A stretch of DNA of 19,355 nucleotides from an uncultured Thermococci archaeon (GTDB lineage Archaea > Methanobacteriota_B > Thermococci > Thermococcales > Thermococcaceae). Under the pieces are notes generated by a model. It was not told the origin of the DNA. It worked only from the letters and a program-made list of their open reading frames with translations, and ran no database searches. The stretch's first letter is position 1. Each line of letters begins with the position of its first letter. Below, piece after piece: positions 1,246 through 19,355 of the stretch. The DNA lies in NCBI GenBank assembly GCA_964615185.1, contig CAZTOS010000046.1, positions 1-19,355 of the forward strand, written 5' to 3'. A program made the position numbers and the translations under genes.

Positions 1246-1860
1246 GTGGTATTGGTGTCTAAAAGTAAGATTGGGGAAAATCTGGAGGAAATAAGGCTCC
1301 ATGGGCGGGGTGGTCAAGGAGTTGTCTTGTGTTCAGAGTTAATTGCCCGAGCTGCATTATATGATGGTAATTTTGCTAGAAGTTTTCCATGGTTTGGAAT
1401 AGCCCGGCGTGGAGCTCCCGTCACAGCATTCGTAGTCATAGGTGAAGGGGATAAAATTACACGAAGCATAGTTTATAATCCCAAATATGTTGTGGTGCTT
1501 GATCCGCACCTTCATAGGGTAATGCCCGAGGTTACTAATAACATCAGAGAGGGAGGTGTGTACATACAGAACTCCACTAAGGCTCCTGCTGAGCTCTTAA
1601 AAGAGCTAAAATTATGTGCTAAGCTAAGGACTATTGCCACAGTAGATGCTACGGGACTAGCCCTGAAGTACATGGGTGCTCCCATTCCTAACATAGCTAT
1701 GCTGGGTGCTTTTGCCAAGGTGACAAATCTCATAACGTTTGATTCTGCTATGAAGGCTATTAAAACCAGATTTTCTGAGAATGTTTGGGAAAAGTACCTA
1801 AAATGCTTTGAAGCCGGATATAAAAAGGTGTATATTGAGGTGTTAGAAAATGAAGAATGA
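1246..1860 (+). CDS. 2-oxoacid:ferredoxin oxidoreductase gamma subunit
   Basis: Motifs EIRLHGRGGQG, FPWFG-RRGAP and PNIAMLGA. The true start may be 1252 or 1255. Confidence 0.92.
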   Translation: MVLVSKSKIGENLEEIRLHGRGGQGVVLCSELIARAALYDGNFARSFPWFGIARRGAPVTAFVVIGEGDKITRSIVYNPKYVVVLDPHLHRVMPEVTNNIREGGVYIQNSTKAPAELLKELKLCAKLRTIATVDATGLALKYMGAPIPNIAMLGAFAKVTNLITFDSAMKAIKTRFSENVWEKYLKCFEAGYKKVYIEVLENEE

Positions 1861-2116
1861 AGAAGGGTATCCTGAAATTCCTGTAATTCCGGTAGGAGAA
1901 ATTGGATCCGAACCAGTGGCTCATTGGAGAGTTATGAAACCTGTTGTCAAGTATGAGATCTGCAAGAAGTGTTGGGTGTGTGTACAGTACTGTCCCGAAG
2001 GAGTGATTAAAGAATCGGAAAGTGGCTCCATAATAGACTACAGGTTCTGTAAGGGTTGTGGTATCTGTGCTAATGAATGTCCCGTAAAAGCAATCGTGAT
2101 GGTTAGGGAGGTGTGA
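1850..2116 (+). CDS. 2-oxoacid:ferredoxin oxidoreductase delta subunit (2x[4Fe-4S])
   Basis: WRVMKPVV, CKKCWVCVQYCP and CKGCGICANECP ferredoxin motifs. Overlaps the gamma gene. Confidence 0.93.
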   Translation: MKNEEGYPEIPVIPVGEIGSEPVAHWRVMKPVVKYEICKKCWVCVQYCPEGVIKESESGSIIDYRFCKGCGICANECPVKAIVMVREV

Positions 2117-2122
2117 GGTATA

Positions 2123-4225
2123 ATGGGAAAGCTTGAATTACTTTCAGGTAATAAAGCAGTAGCATATGGTGCTAAACTCTCCAGGGTGCAAGTGGTTTCA
2201 GCATATCCAATAACACCTCAAACGCCCATAGTTGAATATATAGCCGAATTCATTGCCAATGGCGAGTTAGATGCTGAGTACATACATCCCGAAGGAGAAC
2301 ACTCGGCAATAGCTGCAGCGCTTGGTGCCGCAATAGGGGGCGCAAGAGCTTTTACGGCAACATGCTCTCAAGGATTGGGTTATAGTTTTGAAGTCATAGC
2401 CCAAGCACCTGCGTACAGAGCACCACTCGTGATGGCTATTGCCAATAGAACATTAGGATGGTATTGGAGCGTAGCCAGCGATTACTCAGACACGATGACC
2501 ACGAGAGACCTTGGATGGATTCAATTCTATGCTGAGAGCTGTCAAGAGTGCCTCGATGGCGTGATTCAGATGTATAAGATTGCTGAAGATGAAAGAGTTT
2601 TGTTGCCGGGCATGGTGTGCTTAGATGGCTTCCACCTTTCACATTCTTCAGAACCTGTTAACATACCAGATCAGCAAGAAGTGGATGACTACCTACCTCC
2701 GAGGCAGATATACGAACATACGACTGACCCAACAGAGTCTGAAGGTTACATACTTCCCTCATTGCCCGTGCATTTGCACACTACATATAGAAAGATATTT
2801 GAAGACGTCATGCAAAGAGCTAAGGAGGTCATCTATGAAGCTACCAAAGAGTTTAGTGAAAGGTTTGGAAGAGATACCTACGGGCTTGTAGAGGAGTACC
2901 ACACCGATGGTGCAGAGTTGTTGCTTGTTACAATGGGGTCCATGTCAACAGCAGCTAAAAGAGCCATTGATAGACTGCGTGGCGAAGGAGTTAAAGTGGG
3001 ATTGCTAAGGGTGAGGTTCTTTAGACCCTTCCCTTCTAAGGAGCTACTTGAAGTGGTTAAGAGTAATGACGTTAAAGCCGTAGGGGTTGTTAATAGGGCG
3101 ATAAGTCACGGAACTTCGATGGATCCTTTAGGTATTGAGACTACTGCAACCTTATATGAACTCAAGAATAGACCCAATATAATCAATTTCATAGCCGGAA
3201 TGGGCGGAGGTGATGTTTCAATAAGGGACTTTGAGAGCATGGTGAACAGGCTAACAAATACGCTGAACAAGGAGAACGTGAGGGAGACTGTATATGTGGA
3301 ACGTCCTATAAAAATAAGCAAGCCATCAGTAACATTTAAGGACGTTACATATTGCCCTGGATCCCAGCTTTGCTCTGGTTGTGGTGCCGCTTTAGCTATG
3401 AGACATATACTCAGGATCTTGGGTAAGAACTCGGTGTTAGTGTTCCCTCCAAACTGCGTTTCAGCTTCTTTGGCAATGCACTTCCCCAGCAGTTGGATTG
3501 GTGTTCCCTGTGTCCTAGCTAATTATGCAGCTGCTGCAGCGTATGCGAGGGGTCTTAAAAGAGCATACAAATATAGAGGTAAGAAAGTTTGCGTTACAGT
3601 TATAGCTGGGGACGGCTGTACTGCTGACATAGGACTGCAATCTCTATCTTCAGCTGCCGAGAGCAATGAGCCAATAATATGGATCAACTACGACAACGAG
3701 GCCTATATGAACACAGGCATTCAGAGAAGCGGTACCACTCCATTAAAGGCCTGGACAACAACAACACCTAGTGGAGTTAGGTGGCACGGCAAGAAAGAGC
3801 TTCCTAAGGACCTGATATCGATTATGATGGCTCATAGAACACCGTATATAGCAACAGCGTCTCTGGCATTCATACAGGATTTTGAAACTAAGCTGAAAAA
3901 GGCTATGGAGGTTGTAAAGAAGGGCGAGGGGCTGGCATACATCCACATACAAACCCCATGTCCAACGGGCTGGAGGTTCTCTGAAAGCAAGACTGTTGAA
4001 ATAGCTAAGTTAGCAGTGCTGAGTGGCATGTGGCCTCTTCTCGAAGTGGACCATGGAATCTTTAAGTTAACTCTCAAGCCGTCTAAGTTAAGACCAGTTG
4101 CCGAGTATATTAAGTTGCAGGGGAGGTTTAGGCACTTAACTGATGAAGATGTTGCTGAAATCCAGGAGTTCATTGACAAACGCTGGAAGAGGTTGCTTGA
4201 GTTAGATGGTAAAACCATATGGTGA
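2123..4225 (+). CDS. 2-oxoacid:ferredoxin oxidoreductase, fused alpha+beta subunit
   Basis: The N-terminal ~395 aa is alpha (SGNKAVA, AYPITPQT, EGEHSA, ATCSQGL, RFFRPFP). The C-terminal ~300 aa is beta (CSGCG, TPP motif GDG...YDNEAYMNTGIQRS, PCPTGW, QGRFRHL). Single uninterrupted ORF. Confidence 0.92.
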   Translation: MGKLELLSGNKAVAYGAKLSRVQVVSAYPITPQTPIVEYIAEFIANGELDAEYIHPEGEHSAIAAALGAAIGGARAFTATCSQGLGYSFEVIAQAPAYRAPLVMAIANRTLGWYWSVASDYSDTMTTRDLGWIQFYAESCQECLDGVIQMYKIAEDERVLLPGMVCLDGFHLSHSSEPVNIPDQQEVDDYLPPRQIYEHTTDPTESEGYILPSLPVHLHTTYRKIFEDVMQRAKEVIYEATKEFSERFGRDTYGLVEEYHTDGAELLLVTMGSMSTAAKRAIDRLRGEGVKVGLLRVRFFRPFPSKELLEVVKSNDVKAVGVVNRAISHGTSMDPLGIETTATLYELKNRPNIINFIAGMGGGDVSIRDFESMVNRLTNTLNKENVRETVYVERPIKISKPSVTFKDVTYCPGSQLCSGCGAALAMRHILRILGKNSVLVFPPNCVSASLAMHFPSSWIGVPCVLANYAAAAAYARGLKRAYKYRGKKVCVTVIAGDGCTADIGLQSLSSAAESNEPIIWINYDNEAYMNTGIQRSGTTPLKAWTTTTPSGVRWHGKKELPKDLISIMMAHRTPYIATASLAFIQDFETKLKKAMEVVKKGEGLAYIHIQTPCPTGWRFSESKTVEIAKLAVLSGMWPLLEVDHGIFKLTLKPSKLRPVAEYIKLQGRFRHLTDEDVAEIQEFIDKRWKRLLELDGKTIW

Positions 4226-4251
4226 CATATTAGGTCTTTGGAGGGCCGATT

Positions 4252-5679
4252 ATGGCCGAGTTTAATGTGGATAGCTTAAGATATTTGTTTGAGCCTAATA
4301 GCGTTGCGGTTATTGGAGCCAGCAGAGATCCAAAGGCATGGGGACATGTAATCCTAAAGAATATCATTAGTTACGGTTTTGAAGGGAAAGTGTATCCGAT
4401 AAACCCTAGAGCAGATTCTTTGCTCGGATTAAAGTGCTATCCAGATATTAGAACAGTGCCTAATGATGTGGACTTAGCCATCATTGCTGTACCAGCAAAG
4501 ATAGTTCCAAGTGTCATGGAGGCGTGTGTGGAGAAAGGGGTTAAGGTAGCGGTTGTGATTACTGCAGGATTTAGTGAAATAGGTCCAGAGGGAGAGAAGC
4601 TCGAAAAGGAAGTTGTCAAAATCGCGAGGAGAGGGGGCATTAGAATTGTAGGTCCTAACTGCATGGGGATATTTGTGGCAAAAAGCAAACTTAACGCAGC
4701 ATTTACGGCAATAGCGCCCAAACCCGGAAAGATAGCATTTATCTCACAGTCAGGTGCTTTTGCAGGCACTATGTTATACTGGGCAACTATGAGGGATATA
4801 GGATTCAGTGCAGCAATATCAGTGGGCAATCAAGCCGATTTGGAATTGAGCGACTATTTAATGTACCTAGCTGATGATGAAACGACCAAAGTTACCATAG
4901 CATATATTGAGGGGGTTAAGGATGGCAGAAAATTCATGAAGGCATTAGAGTATTACACGGCAAAGAAACCATTGGTGGTCATGAAGCTGGGGCGCACCTC
5001 AAGCGGTGCCAAGGCGGCATCATCGCACACTGCAGCCATGGTGGGAAGAGATGAGCTCTATGATGTGGTGTTCAAGAAATATGGAGTTATCCGGGTTTAT
5101 GAATTTGATGATATGTTTAACGTAGCTCGAGCATTTGCAAACCTTCCGCTGCCAAAGGGCAATAGAGTGGGGGTTGTATCCGCTGGAGGGGGATGGTGTG
5201 TGGAGGCTTCTGATGCTCTTGAAAGCTTGGGGCTTAAGCTCCCTCCTTTACCAGAGCATGTGATAAGGAAGATGGATGAAATTCTCCCTCCCTTCTGGAA
5301 CAGAAGAAACCCTATGGATCTCGTGGCTACTATAGATCCAGAACCTTTTAAAATTGCCACAGAACTTTTGATGAAAGAGGATCGTTTTGACATATTAATG
5401 CTTATAGGTTACGGAAACTTTGGTAGAATATCCAACTTGCCGTTCATTATACCTAAGGAAGATGCAGTAGCCAAGGAAATAGCTGACCTTGTTAAGAAAT
5501 ATAAAAAACCCCTCGTTGCTGTCAACGTATTTGGCAAGGAGTTTAGCAATGTCAAGGTTTTTGAGGAAAACGGTGTTCCGGTATACCTGTCCATCGAGAA
5601 GGCCGCAAAGGTCGTGAAGGCTTTAGCTGACTATGCACACTACTTGAAATCACTGGAGGAAAGGAAACAAAGCCAGTAG
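4252..5679 (+). CDS. ADP-forming acyl-CoA synthetase alpha subunit (CoA-binding)
   Basis: Motifs PNSVAVIGAS, GPNCMG, FISQSGA, SVGNQAD, phospho-His motif SSHTA and NPMDL. No beta subunit is adjacent. Confidence 0.92.
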   Translation: MAEFNVDSLRYLFEPNSVAVIGASRDPKAWGHVILKNIISYGFEGKVYPINPRADSLLGLKCYPDIRTVPNDVDLAIIAVPAKIVPSVMEACVEKGVKVAVVITAGFSEIGPEGEKLEKEVVKIARRGGIRIVGPNCMGIFVAKSKLNAAFTAIAPKPGKIAFISQSGAFAGTMLYWATMRDIGFSAAISVGNQADLELSDYLMYLADDETTKVTIAYIEGVKDGRKFMKALEYYTAKKPLVVMKLGRTSSGAKAASSHTAAMVGRDELYDVVFKKYGVIRVYEFDDMFNVARAFANLPLPKGNRVGVVSAGGGWCVEASDALESLGLKLPPLPEHVIRKMDEILPPFWNRRNPMDLVATIDPEPFKIATELLMKEDRFDILMLIGYGNFGRISNLPFIIPKEDAVAKEIADLVKKYKKPLVAVNVFGKEFSNVKVFEENGVPVYLSIEKAAKVVKALADYAHYLKSLEERKQSQ

Positions 5680-12019: not shown

Positions 12020-12304
12020 TCACACCTCCACAAGCTCAAATCTCTTTACCCTGAATCCTTCGCCTCTTGTGTGGGCCTTCCCACAAACAGTGCATCTAAA
12101 TCTTAAGTCTAATTTTTTAACAGGCTTTTCTCTGCCCTCTGGCTTTGGTCTTGGAAAACCTTTGTAACCCTTGAGGATTCTCCTGAATCTTCTCTGACCC
12201 GCACTAAGCTCACTTCTTGGTCTCTTCTTTACTTTTTCGACCTTATGAATGGTGTGCTTCTTACAGAACGGGCAGTAAGTCCTTATTTGCTTTGGATATT
12301 TCAT
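12020..12304 (-). CDS. rpl44e: 50S ribosomal protein L44e (eL42)
   Basis: [18 protein letters not shown]...[12 protein letters not shown]. Confidence 0.97.
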
Positions 12305-12529: not shown

Positions 12530-12724
12530 GAAAATGAGTTGGAACAATCCGTTCTGGTTATCCGCTACTTTTAAAACATGTGAAACTATCGTAGCGGATA
12601 ACCTTCCCTCCTCCCTTCTTCATTGGAGGGCTTTTGGGGGGAACGGAAACTCCCCACATCTTCAGGACTTTCAGCAGTCCCCATTCGGGCTTAAAACCCC
12701 ACATATCGGGGACTACCACATCAC
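12530..12724 (-). ncRNA. Putative TnpB omegaRNA (reRNA): ~170 nt scaffold plus 3' guide from flanking DNA
   Basis: TATA TTTATATA (12752-12745) with BRE-like CGTAAT. Consecutive GC-rich stems GUAGUCCCC/GGGGACUGC, GGGGA/UCCCC, CCCUCC/GGAGGG and a 13-bp terminal stem, ending at the IS right end. Confidence 0.55.
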
Positions 12725-12811
12725 AATAAGGTTCACCACAAAACTATATAAAAATTACGAAAAACAAAAGTCAGCAAATGTTTCGCTTGTTGCTATCTAC
12801 GAAACAGTCCC
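12549..12811 (-). mobile_element. Non-autonomous (MITE-like) IS607-family/TnpB-derived element
   Basis: GG at both ends on the minus strand. Right end CAGAAC|GG is preceded by a 13-bp perfect hairpin (12556-12568/12591-12603). It encodes a TnpB-like C-terminal tail LKMWGVSVPPKSPPMKKGGGKVIRYD..G* (recognised from memory). The left end has a 7-bp IR TGTTTCG/CGAAACA. The same right end recurs at 19303. The left boundary is uncertain by at least 1 nt. Confidence 0.75.
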
Positions 12812-17792: not shown

Positions 17793-18140
17793 TCACTCGA
17801 CATCAACACTGTTTTCCCAAAGCCCATGAATATTACAGTAGCTCAAAGCATAGAGTTTGCCCCTCTTGCTTGTTCTAATATAGAATTTTGCCCTTGGTTC
17901 AGTGAGTGGATCACCGTGGTTGGTAAATGCCACTCTGCCAACCATAATTGGGAACTTCTCTCCCTCAGGATGGAAGTAAAGCTCAATCCAAGCTATGTGG
18001 TGCTCTGGTGTATTTGGATGTGGAATTTCTTTTCCAACACTAACCTCTATCTCAAGCAGGTCTCCTTCCTTCTTGTATTCTATAACTGGAACATGCTTTT
18101 CTCCTTTCCAATCTCCAGAAGCTATGGTTTTGCTCAACAC
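17793..18140 (-). CDS. sor: Superoxide reductase (1Fe-SOR, neelaredoxin type)
   Basis: Iron-ligand motifs EKHVP, HPNTPEHHI and CNIHG. GTG 18140 follows SD GAGGTGA. Confidence 0.95.
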   Translation of the reverse strand: MLSKTIASGDWKGEKHVPVIEYKKEGDLLEIEVSVGKEIPHPNTPEHHIAWIELYFHPEGEKFPIMVGRVAFTNHGDPLTEPRAKFYIRTSKRGKLYALSYCNIHGLWENSVDVE

Positions 18141-18150
18141 CTTCATCACC

Positions 18151-18249
18151 TCACTCTATTTTCTCAAACATATCTTTTCCAGCTCCACAAAGAGGACAAA
18201 CCCTTCCTCATAATATGTATCAGCAAACCAGGCATTTCCACGTTGTCAT
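18151..18249 (-). pseudogene. Rubredoxin pseudogene
   Basis: Reads MTTWKCLVC*YIL*GRVCPLCGAGKDMFEKIE*. Both CxxC knuckles are present, but there are two in-frame TGA stops and ~20 central codons are missing. It sits in the canonical rbr-rd-sor position. Confidence 0.88.
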
Positions 18250-18331: not shown

Positions 18332-18847
18332 TCACTCAAAGATAACAAACTTTTCCTTTGGAACACCGCAGACTGGACACTTCTCGGGAGCTTCATCAAC
18401 GGCAGTATAACCACAGACAGGACATATATAGATTTTCTTAATTTCCATGTCCTTCTTCTGCTCTGCAAGTTCTTTCGCTTTCCTGTAGAGTTCAGCATGA
18501 ATCTTCTCTGCCTCTAACGCATAGTGTGTACTCCTAACAGCTTCCTTTTCTCCTTGCAATTCTGCAACTGCCTTATAAGCTGGATACATCTCCTCAACTT
18601 CAAAGGTTTCACCATCTATAGCCATTTGTAGATTTTCAGCTGTATCTTTCACATTTCCAAGAGCCTTGAGGTGATTCTTGGCATGAACAAGCTCAGCAAA
18701 TGCAATCGCTCTAAAGAGCTTTGCGATGTTTGGAAATCCTTCCTTTTCAGCAATCTTTGCAAAAATGAGATACTTCATGTGAGCTTGGCTTTCACCTGCA
18801 TAAGCTTCGCTCAAAAACTTTTTTGTCATTTCCCTTTCCACGACCAT
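18332..18847 (-). CDS. rbr: Rubrerythrin
   Basis: AYAGESQAHMKY, AELVHA, GETFEVEEMYP, EKIHA and C-terminal CPVCG..CPVCG. SD GGAGGCGG before ATG 18847 gives 171 aa. Confidence 0.96.
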   Translation of the reverse strand: MVVEREMTKKFLSEAYAGESQAHMKYLIFAKIAEKEGFPNIAKLFRAIAFAELVHAKNHLKALGNVKDTAENLQMAIDGETFEVEEMYPAYKAVAELQGEKEAVRSTHYALEAEKIHAELYRKAKELAEQKKDMEIKKIYICPVCGYTAVDEAPEKCPVCGVPKEKFVIFE

Positions 18848-18894
18848 ATTATCCGCCTCCATCGAATCGTTTCAATATATTTTTCAAAAAAGGA

Positions 18895-18909
18895 ATATAA
18901 AAGGCTTTC
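18895..18909 (-). promoter_or_regulatory. BRE/TATA promoter of rbr
   Basis: Minus strand reads GAAAGCC TTTTATAT. Confidence 0.55.
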
Positions 18910-19039
18910 TCAAGCCATAGGTTGTTTTATGATCCTATTTATGTTAGATTAGCCAAATAATTTTCACAAAAGTCCATTAGGATTTGCTCCGGTCTTGAAG
19001 ATTTTCAAGTTTCCAATCAGTTATGCTAAAATATGCCTC

Positions 19040-19303
19040 TTATTTATTCAGCCTCTTGAGGAGCTTTCTAACTCCCTCTCTGATCTTTTCCTCGTCTTCC
19101 TTAGTTGTTTGTCCCCTAACTTCAATTGTGTCAACATGGTCAAACTTGCTCCTCATTATCATCGTCTCAATTTCCCTCCCAGCGACACCTCCCCAGCCAT
19201 ATGCACCCAGAATCAGCACGGGCTTCTCGTAGTTTGCCTTATCAACTATCTCATAGAGGACGTAGCGAACTCTTGGATGGATGTTTGCCTCATATGTCGA
19301 TGC
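19040..19303 (-). pseudogene. fprA: 3' part of a flavodiiron protein (FprA) gene, interrupted by an IS insertion
   Basis: Reads ASTYEANIHPRVRYVLYEIVDKANYEKPVLILGAYGWGGVAG...LLKRLNK*, a flavodoxin-like domain. The frame hits TAA at 19321 inside the inserted element. Confidence 0.85.
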
Positions 19304-19355
19304 CGTTCTGCCTACCCGTTAAGAGCGTGTAGTGTGTTAATTTCATAGCGGGTAG
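19303..19355 (-). mobile_element. Right end of an IS607-family/TnpB element inserted in fprA (continues beyond the window)
   Basis: Minus strand ...hairpin-CAGAAC|GG, the same architecture as 12549-12603, with the same 24-nt spacing between arms and the same RY(D/E)-x9-G-stop tail. Confidence 0.78.

Follow-up and report, generated by a model that had tools for sequence, protein, structure and literature searches.

The element analysed here lies closest to the IS607 family of insertion sequences, most members of which are stated, in the available part of the source, to terminate in GG (PMC6188088). A second point of reference is the CboTnpB IS607 system, for which retention of the insertion by TnpB has been shown and whose scaffold ends at CGG; as far as the accessible text of that preprint goes, LE-GC/RE-GG junctions were obtained only from an engineered GC donor, and the mechanism was called unresolved (bioRxiv 10.1101/2023.11.20.567912). 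Two other systems are relevant to gene content: an archaeal RHH/MazE-TnpB clade, described as non-mobile and catalytically rearranged in the accessible sections of the work that proposed a toxin-antitoxin role for it (PMC10691335), and bacterial IS605 elements, including forms carrying only arc and tnpB, where Arc is described in the available text as repressing the promoter (bioRxiv 10.64898/2026.09.24.754181). As for the host, NROR of Thermococcales reduces rubredoxin, which feeds rubrerythrin (Rbr) and superoxide reductase (SOR) as well as flavodiiron proteins, according to the available part of PMC13333549 (citing Thorgersen 2012).

The window, a stretch of 19,355 nucleotides, is the entire contig C46 of its own genome bin, G000, which is 95.6% complete; sequencing run X1 is its possible source. 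It was compared with the genomes of relatives (G002, G004, G005, and G008), with loci on other contigs (numbered L041 and so on), and with four sequencing runs, X1 to X4. The runs were compared with L041 at the contig level, where rare variants drop out. A scan for the pattern of the element end yielded 46 loci on metagenome contigs and 13 on genome contigs. At 1246-5679 of the window lies a cluster that we take to resemble 2-oxoacid:ferredoxin oxidoreductase subunits, among them a fused 700-aa ORF, and an ADP-forming acyl-CoA synthetase; it was possibly acquired horizontally.

At its right border, on the minus strand, the window holds a 3' remnant of fprA (19040..19303; codons 324-410 and the stop, 97% identical to the intact 410-aa flavodiiron protein of G002), abutted by the last 52 nt of a 1436-nt IS607-type element (19304..19355). 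The 87 codons read from 19303 down to 19043 match residues 324-410 of the G002 protein. The right junction GG occupies 19303..19304 on the same strand, with 19303 being the target G and the first base of the Ala324 codon. The original prediction, made from the window alone, had placed this G at the opening of the Ala codon within ASTYE; followed from 19303, the frame of FprA is indeed closed by a stop six codons upstream. The same prediction held that the right end belongs to a tnpB element inserted into fprA, and reading past the window bears this out. Locus L041 repeats the last 5053 nt of the window with one mismatch and continues past its end into the full element (L041:5002-6437), which consists of a left end, a 54-aa RHH-like ORF co-oriented with tnpB and overlapping its start, an intact 392-aa TnpB, and a predicted omega-RNA scaffold; tnpA is absent from its 1436 nt. 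Beyond it lies, in register, the 5' part of fprA, whose product now stops after Gly323 plus eight foreign residues, so that the last 87 of 410 residues are lost. The domain pair of a flavodiiron protein, a metallo-beta-lactamase-like and a flavodoxin domain, is recognized by Pfam matches to ODP (E 4e-23) and, weakly, to Flavodoxin_1; with flavorubredoxin models, the intact G002 orthologue gives E 5.5e-58, a match that stays below the cut-offs of these models.

Run X4 carries the empty site: its joint skips exactly 1436 nt, reads ATT GGG|GCA, and has no duplication. The joints listed for X1, X2, and X3 include none of the empty site at the contig level, where rare variants drop out. The 5' part of fprA was found neither by tblastn nor by Pfam in G000; it is unbinned and present in X1, which has both parts of the gene. 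The same right end also terminates both sides of contig C25, and this repetition explains why the contig breaks at the end of the window. The insertion is a strain-polymorphic one of a non-autonomous IS607-type element, by an ordinary mechanism. The reading that we favour, and regard as likely, is that the window ends in a transposase-less element with an RHH-like gene and intact tnpB, lodged between G and G in fprA and truncating FprA, and that the hit is likely tolerated as the donors rubredoxin and NROR are broken. It builds on directly observed features, namely the anatomy of the element, its two junctions, the uninserted allele of a related strain, the lost FprA residues, and the lesions in the two partner genes.

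The same ends enclose a serine transposase and tnpB in elements of 1.82-1.86 kb, the TnpA of which passes the NF033518 model 'IS607 family transposase' with 239 bits. The element family is therefore IS607, and the 1436-nt copy, lacking tnpA, is filed as a non-autonomous derivative. Since the cognate transposase is a serine recombinase, an IS605-type identity, with its Y1 transposase, does not apply. As in IS607, a RuvC-type tnpB stands as the second ORF. The L041 TnpB reaches 176 bits against a cut-off of 100 for NF040570 and contains the Pfam TNB domain, whereas it scores 36 against a cut-off of 350 for the narrower NF038280 IS607_TnpB model. Its D-E-D motifs (GVD, LEDL, and DRD) are canonical, as in most of 25 relatives, and it has a zinc finger. 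Also as in IS607, terminal inverted repeats are absent and an imperfect subterminal repeat is present, about 25 subterminal nt of the left end aligning in L041 with the reverse complement of the right end; across the family, the inverted-repeat score of the two ends is modestly above shuffles (17.0 vs 14.3).

A DNA search matched the element family in 62 of the 97 genomes of the host family, G000 included, and the 25-nt end pattern had zero matches in 7 genus relatives. Matches also occur in records L081, L084, L086, and L089, titled Thermoproteales, Thermoproteota, and Desulfurococcaceae, which suggests transfer across phyla or mis-binning. G000 itself has three long copies and six ORF-less mini-elements of about 240-260 nt. 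One of the latter is copy 1 of the window (12550..12807, minus strand), with 258 nt comprising a left end, a scaffold, and a right end with the other hairpin sub-type; its empty site found no clean match in G002 or G005. Besides the copy in fprA, the second long copy appears to interrupt what is presumably a cbiM-like gene (end of C42 and start of C25) and the third what we take to be an ABC-ATPase gene (start of C62 and end of C25), both gene names coming from sequence motifs and both contig pairings from the reading frame. Contig C62 opens with a left end, followed by the beginning of a tnpA in which 27 of 27 residues are cognate; the contig end cuts this gene, which may be broken. This copy is the likely trans-acting source of transposase: it would be autonomous and have supplied the cognate serine TnpA that moved the element in fprA. 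A second, more distant IS607-type tnpA (51% identical) lies at G000:C11:42976-43746, with a different tnpB start, also cut by a contig end, and at G000:C59:1-80 a degraded right end of the family abuts the apparent left end of another IS.

In the best 30 loci, a set biased towards the RHH-type query, the 5' slot holds tnpA in 16, RHH in 14, and both in none. The RHH or TnpA label changes 4 times on a weakly supported tree of 25 TnpB proteins, and none of its well-supported branches contradicts a single origin of the swap.

The junctions of the family were collected from 87 right ends, 58 with a locatable left end, which gave 49 non-redundant elements. At the left, 43 of the 49 junctions read GGG|C, and the target is likewise GGG|G in 43. 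The first element base at the left is C in 47 and A in 2; it is never G, so that the GG at both termini typical of IS607 is not seen here. The right junction is GG in 49/49; this dinucleotide was demanded by the search pattern for L033-L091, and it also stands in all 28 of the 30 BLAST-found loci in which the right end is shown. An empty site was available for 3 of 48 elements tested (L041, L105, and L115, the last at 77% identity), with a gap of 0 in each, in agreement with the X4 joint and with the insertion at GG without target-site duplication of IS607. The original IS607 paper reportedly described both 0-bp and 2-bp duplications. From junctions and empty sites it follows that insertion occurs as GGG|G without duplication and that the core dinucleotides mismatch, with GC at the left and GG at the right. 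We propose, tentatively and with less than even confidence, that the family may recombine via unmatched cores (left GC, right GG, target GG) over one shared G, and that repeated recombination may toggle its 5' slot between two genes, one for a serine transposase and one for an RHH repressor. If so, it would be a thermostable model, occurring in nature, in which to study the strand-exchange step of IS607 transposases; and should a heteroduplex remain after excision, part of the donor joints would no longer carry the GGGG TAM and would escape TnpB.

The right end was recognized in the window through CCGTTCTG, which has 3 matches there vs 0.26 expected. At 12549 and 19303 a hairpin follows; behind the third match (12264-12271), inside a ribosomal-protein gene, it is absent. 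Both copies of the right end were re-found as originally described, with the same terminal bases, a spacing of 24 nt, and two T-A pairs replaced by genuine C-G pairs. Their loops share 8 of 24 bases, and the hairpins belong to different sub-types, so the coexistence of diverged sub-types also stands. A third pair is compensated as well (G-C to C-G), one of its two bases being position 19356, which lies 1 nt outside the window; one arm change is uncompensated (T.G on the plus strand, C.A on the element strand). The hairpin of copy 2 (19310..19355, minus strand; 24-nt loop) has its arms at 19310-19321 and 19346-19357, the last 2 nt outside the window, and within the window its folding is weak (z -1.3 on the element strand and -2.2 on the plus strand) vs that of copy 1 (z -5.6 and -6.3). 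The C-terminal codons of tnpB (19312..19355, minus strand) run through the structure, with the stop codon TAG at 19312-19314 in the arm.

Across 42 right ends, hand-picked from 59 unique ones, the terminal helix is paired in 94% of cells and 6 of its 12 pairs are changed on both sides. The whole-structure covariation score of 0.252 exceeds that of shuffles (0.092; 0/500) and of slid controls (<=0.058), and the covarying structure is real. A stop codon (TAG, TAA, or TGA) is kept in the arm of each type. By analogy with the published IS607 case, the structure would be the 3' hairpin of the omega-RNA. The original prediction had put the hairpin under structural selection; of this, the covariation among the 42 copies stands, whereas the RNA and DNA levels are not distinguished, and the arm also holds the tnpB stop codon. 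Compensatory changes might come from DNA-level processes instead of selection on an omega-RNA, for instance a transposase-binding or cruciform end structure, or homogenization of the inverted repeats via template switching. Such an origin is the most serious alternative to our reading, though on balance an unlikely one. It would suit the near-perfect Watson-Crick arms, in which the counts of G.U and A.C cells are both low and similar (12 vs 15) and neither strand is favoured in the 42 right ends, and the presence of about four arm types, which implies few independent events; indeed, the number of pairs changed on both sides is not above shuffles (156/500). It would also suit a motif in the loop and inner arm of copy 2, which forms an imperfect inverted repeat of the left end and is likely, as predicted from its sequence, to be bound by the transposase. 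However, the upstream helix (columns 54-59/74-79) covaries too, ORF-less minis keep the whole scaffold, and published IS607 omega-RNA scaffolds end at the right end in the accessible text (bioRxiv 10.1101/2023.11.20.567912). An RNA-level role for the hairpin appears the likelier one. Separately, a 3-nt loop variant (window 19323-19325) is swapped among three insertion sites between datasets, being present in the fprA copy of X2 and in the copy of L066, and absent from the window, L041, and L055; chimeric assembly, or gene conversion among the copies, may account for it.

On the RNA-level reading, a transcript running through tnpB would yield an omega-RNA with a scaffold that terminates in the covarying hairpin and ...AACGG and, behind it, a guide derived from fprA. 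The predicted guide, the first 20 nt after GG (19283..19302, minus strand), is fprA coding sequence, its boundary being taken from the CboTnpB preprint (bioRxiv 10.1101/2023.11.20.567912). The expectation that the guide would come from fprA is upheld at this level of prediction, and the empty site regenerates a TAM-like GGGG. The guide differs at position 5 from the intact G002 and G004 alleles, and no off-target GGGG-plus-guide site was found in G000 that stays below 4 mismatches over 16 nt. After excision, TnpB would cut the regenerated nGGGG-plus-guide site, and the break would be mended from a chromosome copy that is still occupied, which brings the element back, as published for a bacterial IS607. 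Such 'lock-in' of the insertion is plausible by analogy and corresponds to a known function of TnpB. It is probably not needed here, given that in G000 FprA's supply through NROR and rubredoxin is broken already.

The breakage lies next to the insertion. On the minus strand, intact genes for SOR (17793..18149, desulfoferrodoxin domain) and Rbr (18332..18862) flank a rubredoxin pseudogene (18151..18249), which has a nonsense codon at 18220-18222 and lacks 63 nt vs G002 and G004. The interval between Rbr and the fprA remnant (18863..19039) is where NROR, of 348 aa in G004, has been deleted down to its last ~50 nt. The deletion is common to G000 and G002, and NROR was found in 6 of 8 genus genomes. 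No rubredoxin Pfam match was found in G000 (95.6% complete), whereas all 7 genus relatives have one, as do 74 of the 80 family genomes that are at least 90% complete; five other family genomes (G028, G031, G039, G055, and G077) also have no match. FprA had likely lost its electron supply, which would make the knockout probably near-neutral, and the insertion appears to have hit a gene whose donor was recently lost. If rubredoxin was indeed lost first, as is likely, TnpB retention would meet little opposing selection. Two qualifications apply. Because Rbr and SOR also use rubredoxin and nevertheless stay intact, there are hints that another donor could have fed FprA too; and since G000 is incomplete and has no 5' part of fprA either, the bin might also have missed a further rubredoxin.

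An opposite view is that fprA is still useful and that the TnpB drive keeps the knockout fixed against host selection. The intact catalytic motifs of TnpB, the regeneration of GGGG plus a guide match at the empty site, and the lack of a listed empty-site joint in contigs of X1-X3 would all fit. So would the substitution pattern, which also counts against our own reading: relaxed selection on fprA was not found, as G000-specific changes (8 non-synonymous and 21 synonymous in the 5' part, 2 and 2 in the 3' part) are similar to those of relatives, which points to FprA, under purifying selection, having been maintained until recently. Against this, both known donors are broken at the same locus, and the uninserted allele of X4 carries a frameshifting 1-nt gap at 19191 (a single contig, depth 10). 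We consider a drive against selection unlikely and favour a tolerated insertion. In G008 (C1:903739-903987) the fprA orthologue has an in-frame TGA inside the match, and two more insertions, of another multicopy mini-element, lie near upstream of fprA (L041:8496-8885 and the end of G000 C89), one of them at the start of a 637-aa gene.

The gene occupying the tnpA slot encodes an RHH-like protein that matches Pfam RHH_6 (E 0.0012) and RHH_1 (E 0.0036), both below cut-off, and CopG at E 0.26. Its structural model has an extended N-terminus followed by two helices; the top Foldseek rows are RHH proteins with E > 1, and the fold search returned nothing at E <= 0.001. The gene sits directly upstream of tnpB and is conserved (78-93% identity). 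In place of tnpA, the protein would likely repress the left-end promoter, a role that analogy makes likelier than toxin-antitoxin. An RHH-TnpB toxin-antitoxin pair, with RHH binding and blocking TnpB as modelled in PMC10691335, would agree with a small, conserved gene that lies upstream of tnpB and overlaps it. We nonetheless find this quite improbable. That clade is described, in the available text, as non-mobile with a rearranged active site, whereas this element is mobile and canonical, and promoter repression is reported for the IS605 counterparts in the accessible part of bioRxiv 10.64898/2026.09.24.754181. A rearranged catalytic site is absent in L041 and in most of the 25 relatives, and immobility does not agree with filled and empty alleles in close strains or with several copies per genome. 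RHH paralogues (39-49% identical) occur on G000 contigs C42, C56, C130, C27, C1, and C61, those on C42, C56, C27, and C1 upstream of a different tnpB family; an RHH cassette seems common to several IS families. To judge from sequence, a predicted RHH protein replaces tnpA in mobile, catalytically canonical elements, and such mobile RHH-plus-tnpB forms could separate the repressor from the antitoxin model.

Removal of the element from the mRNA, by IStron-like or archaeal bulge-helix-bulge (BHB) splicing so that FprA is still made, had also been raised by the original prediction and did not survive scrutiny; we hold it to be very improbable. All three long copies of G000 appear co-oriented with their host genes, and the two element ends can pair as RNA. 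However, within long ORFs GGGG lies on the sense strand in 68% of cases, so co-orientation with fprA is expected and three out of three has p ~0.3. The element is filled by ORFs, and an Rfam scan of L041:4800-6700 revealed no intron or known RNA family, the group I intron core of IStrons included, over the element giving one chance match only (E 0.46). BHB geometry was absent at all three sites examined, with just 2/4 or 1/4 pairs in the central helix at fprA. An apparent palindrome in the fprA flanks was attributed to chance, as 16% of mismatched flank pairs fold equally well. Finally, a misassembly at 19303, which a contig ending in a repeat and a 5' part of fprA outside the G000 bin might have suggested, is refuted and has next to no probability, since L041 runs through the element, run X3 spans both of its junctions, and X1 has the 5' part.

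At this locus of a vent archaeon, one branch of oxygen defence, that of NROR, rubredoxin, and the flavodiiron protein, can be seen to decay step by step. Rbr and SOR are intact, and the question arises of what now reduces these two proteins. What the element family has to offer is a thermostable TnpB, its predicted TAM being nGGGG, and a natural asymmetric recombination core for work on the IS607 mechanism. In the literature searched (main texts, with few subscription journals), there was no report on this Thermococcales IS607 family, on IS607 elements with RHH for tnpA, or on rubredoxin loss in Thermococcales.

Compared with known systems, the insertion itself is routine transposon biology, and its variant features, RHH in the tnpA slot and an asymmetric core, are modest. 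With IS607, IS1535, and ISC1926, as presented in the available sections of PMC6188088 and PMC4058570, the family shares a serine TnpA with an N-terminal DNA-binding domain on cognate ends, tnpB, a G-rich target, zero target duplication, and an imperfect inverted repeat near the ends; this copy differs in having RHH in place of tnpA, a left junction GC, and unmatched core dinucleotides. The accessible text on CboIStron (bioRxiv 10.1101/2023.11.20.567912) describes a similar G-rich target/TAM, a scaffold ending in CGG, and a guide from the flank, and TnpB retention is predicted here as well. The engineered GC-core donor of that study gave exactly the LE-GC/RE-GG junctions found naturally here, whereas the present element has no group I intron, uses nGGGG rather than TGGG, and resides in an archaeal host. 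Like the RHH/MazE-TnpB clade (PMC10691335, available part), it has an archaeal RHH-like gene upstream of tnpB, but it has intact ends, recent insertions, and canonical D-E-D residues. It also resembles the Arc elements of the IS605 family in pairing a small RHH-like gene with tnpB, as far as the accessible text goes (bioRxiv 10.64898/2026.09.24.754181), and departs from them in its serine IS607 ends, its archaeal host, and an RHH gene that is co-oriented with tnpB and overlaps it in the tnpA slot. Finally, relative to the Thermococcales NROR-rubredoxin-Rbr/SOR/FDP cascade outlined in the available part of PMC13333549, the same genes occupy the same locus in relatives, whereas here NROR is deleted, rubredoxin is pseudogenized, and the FDP gene is interrupted, with Rbr and SOR left intact.
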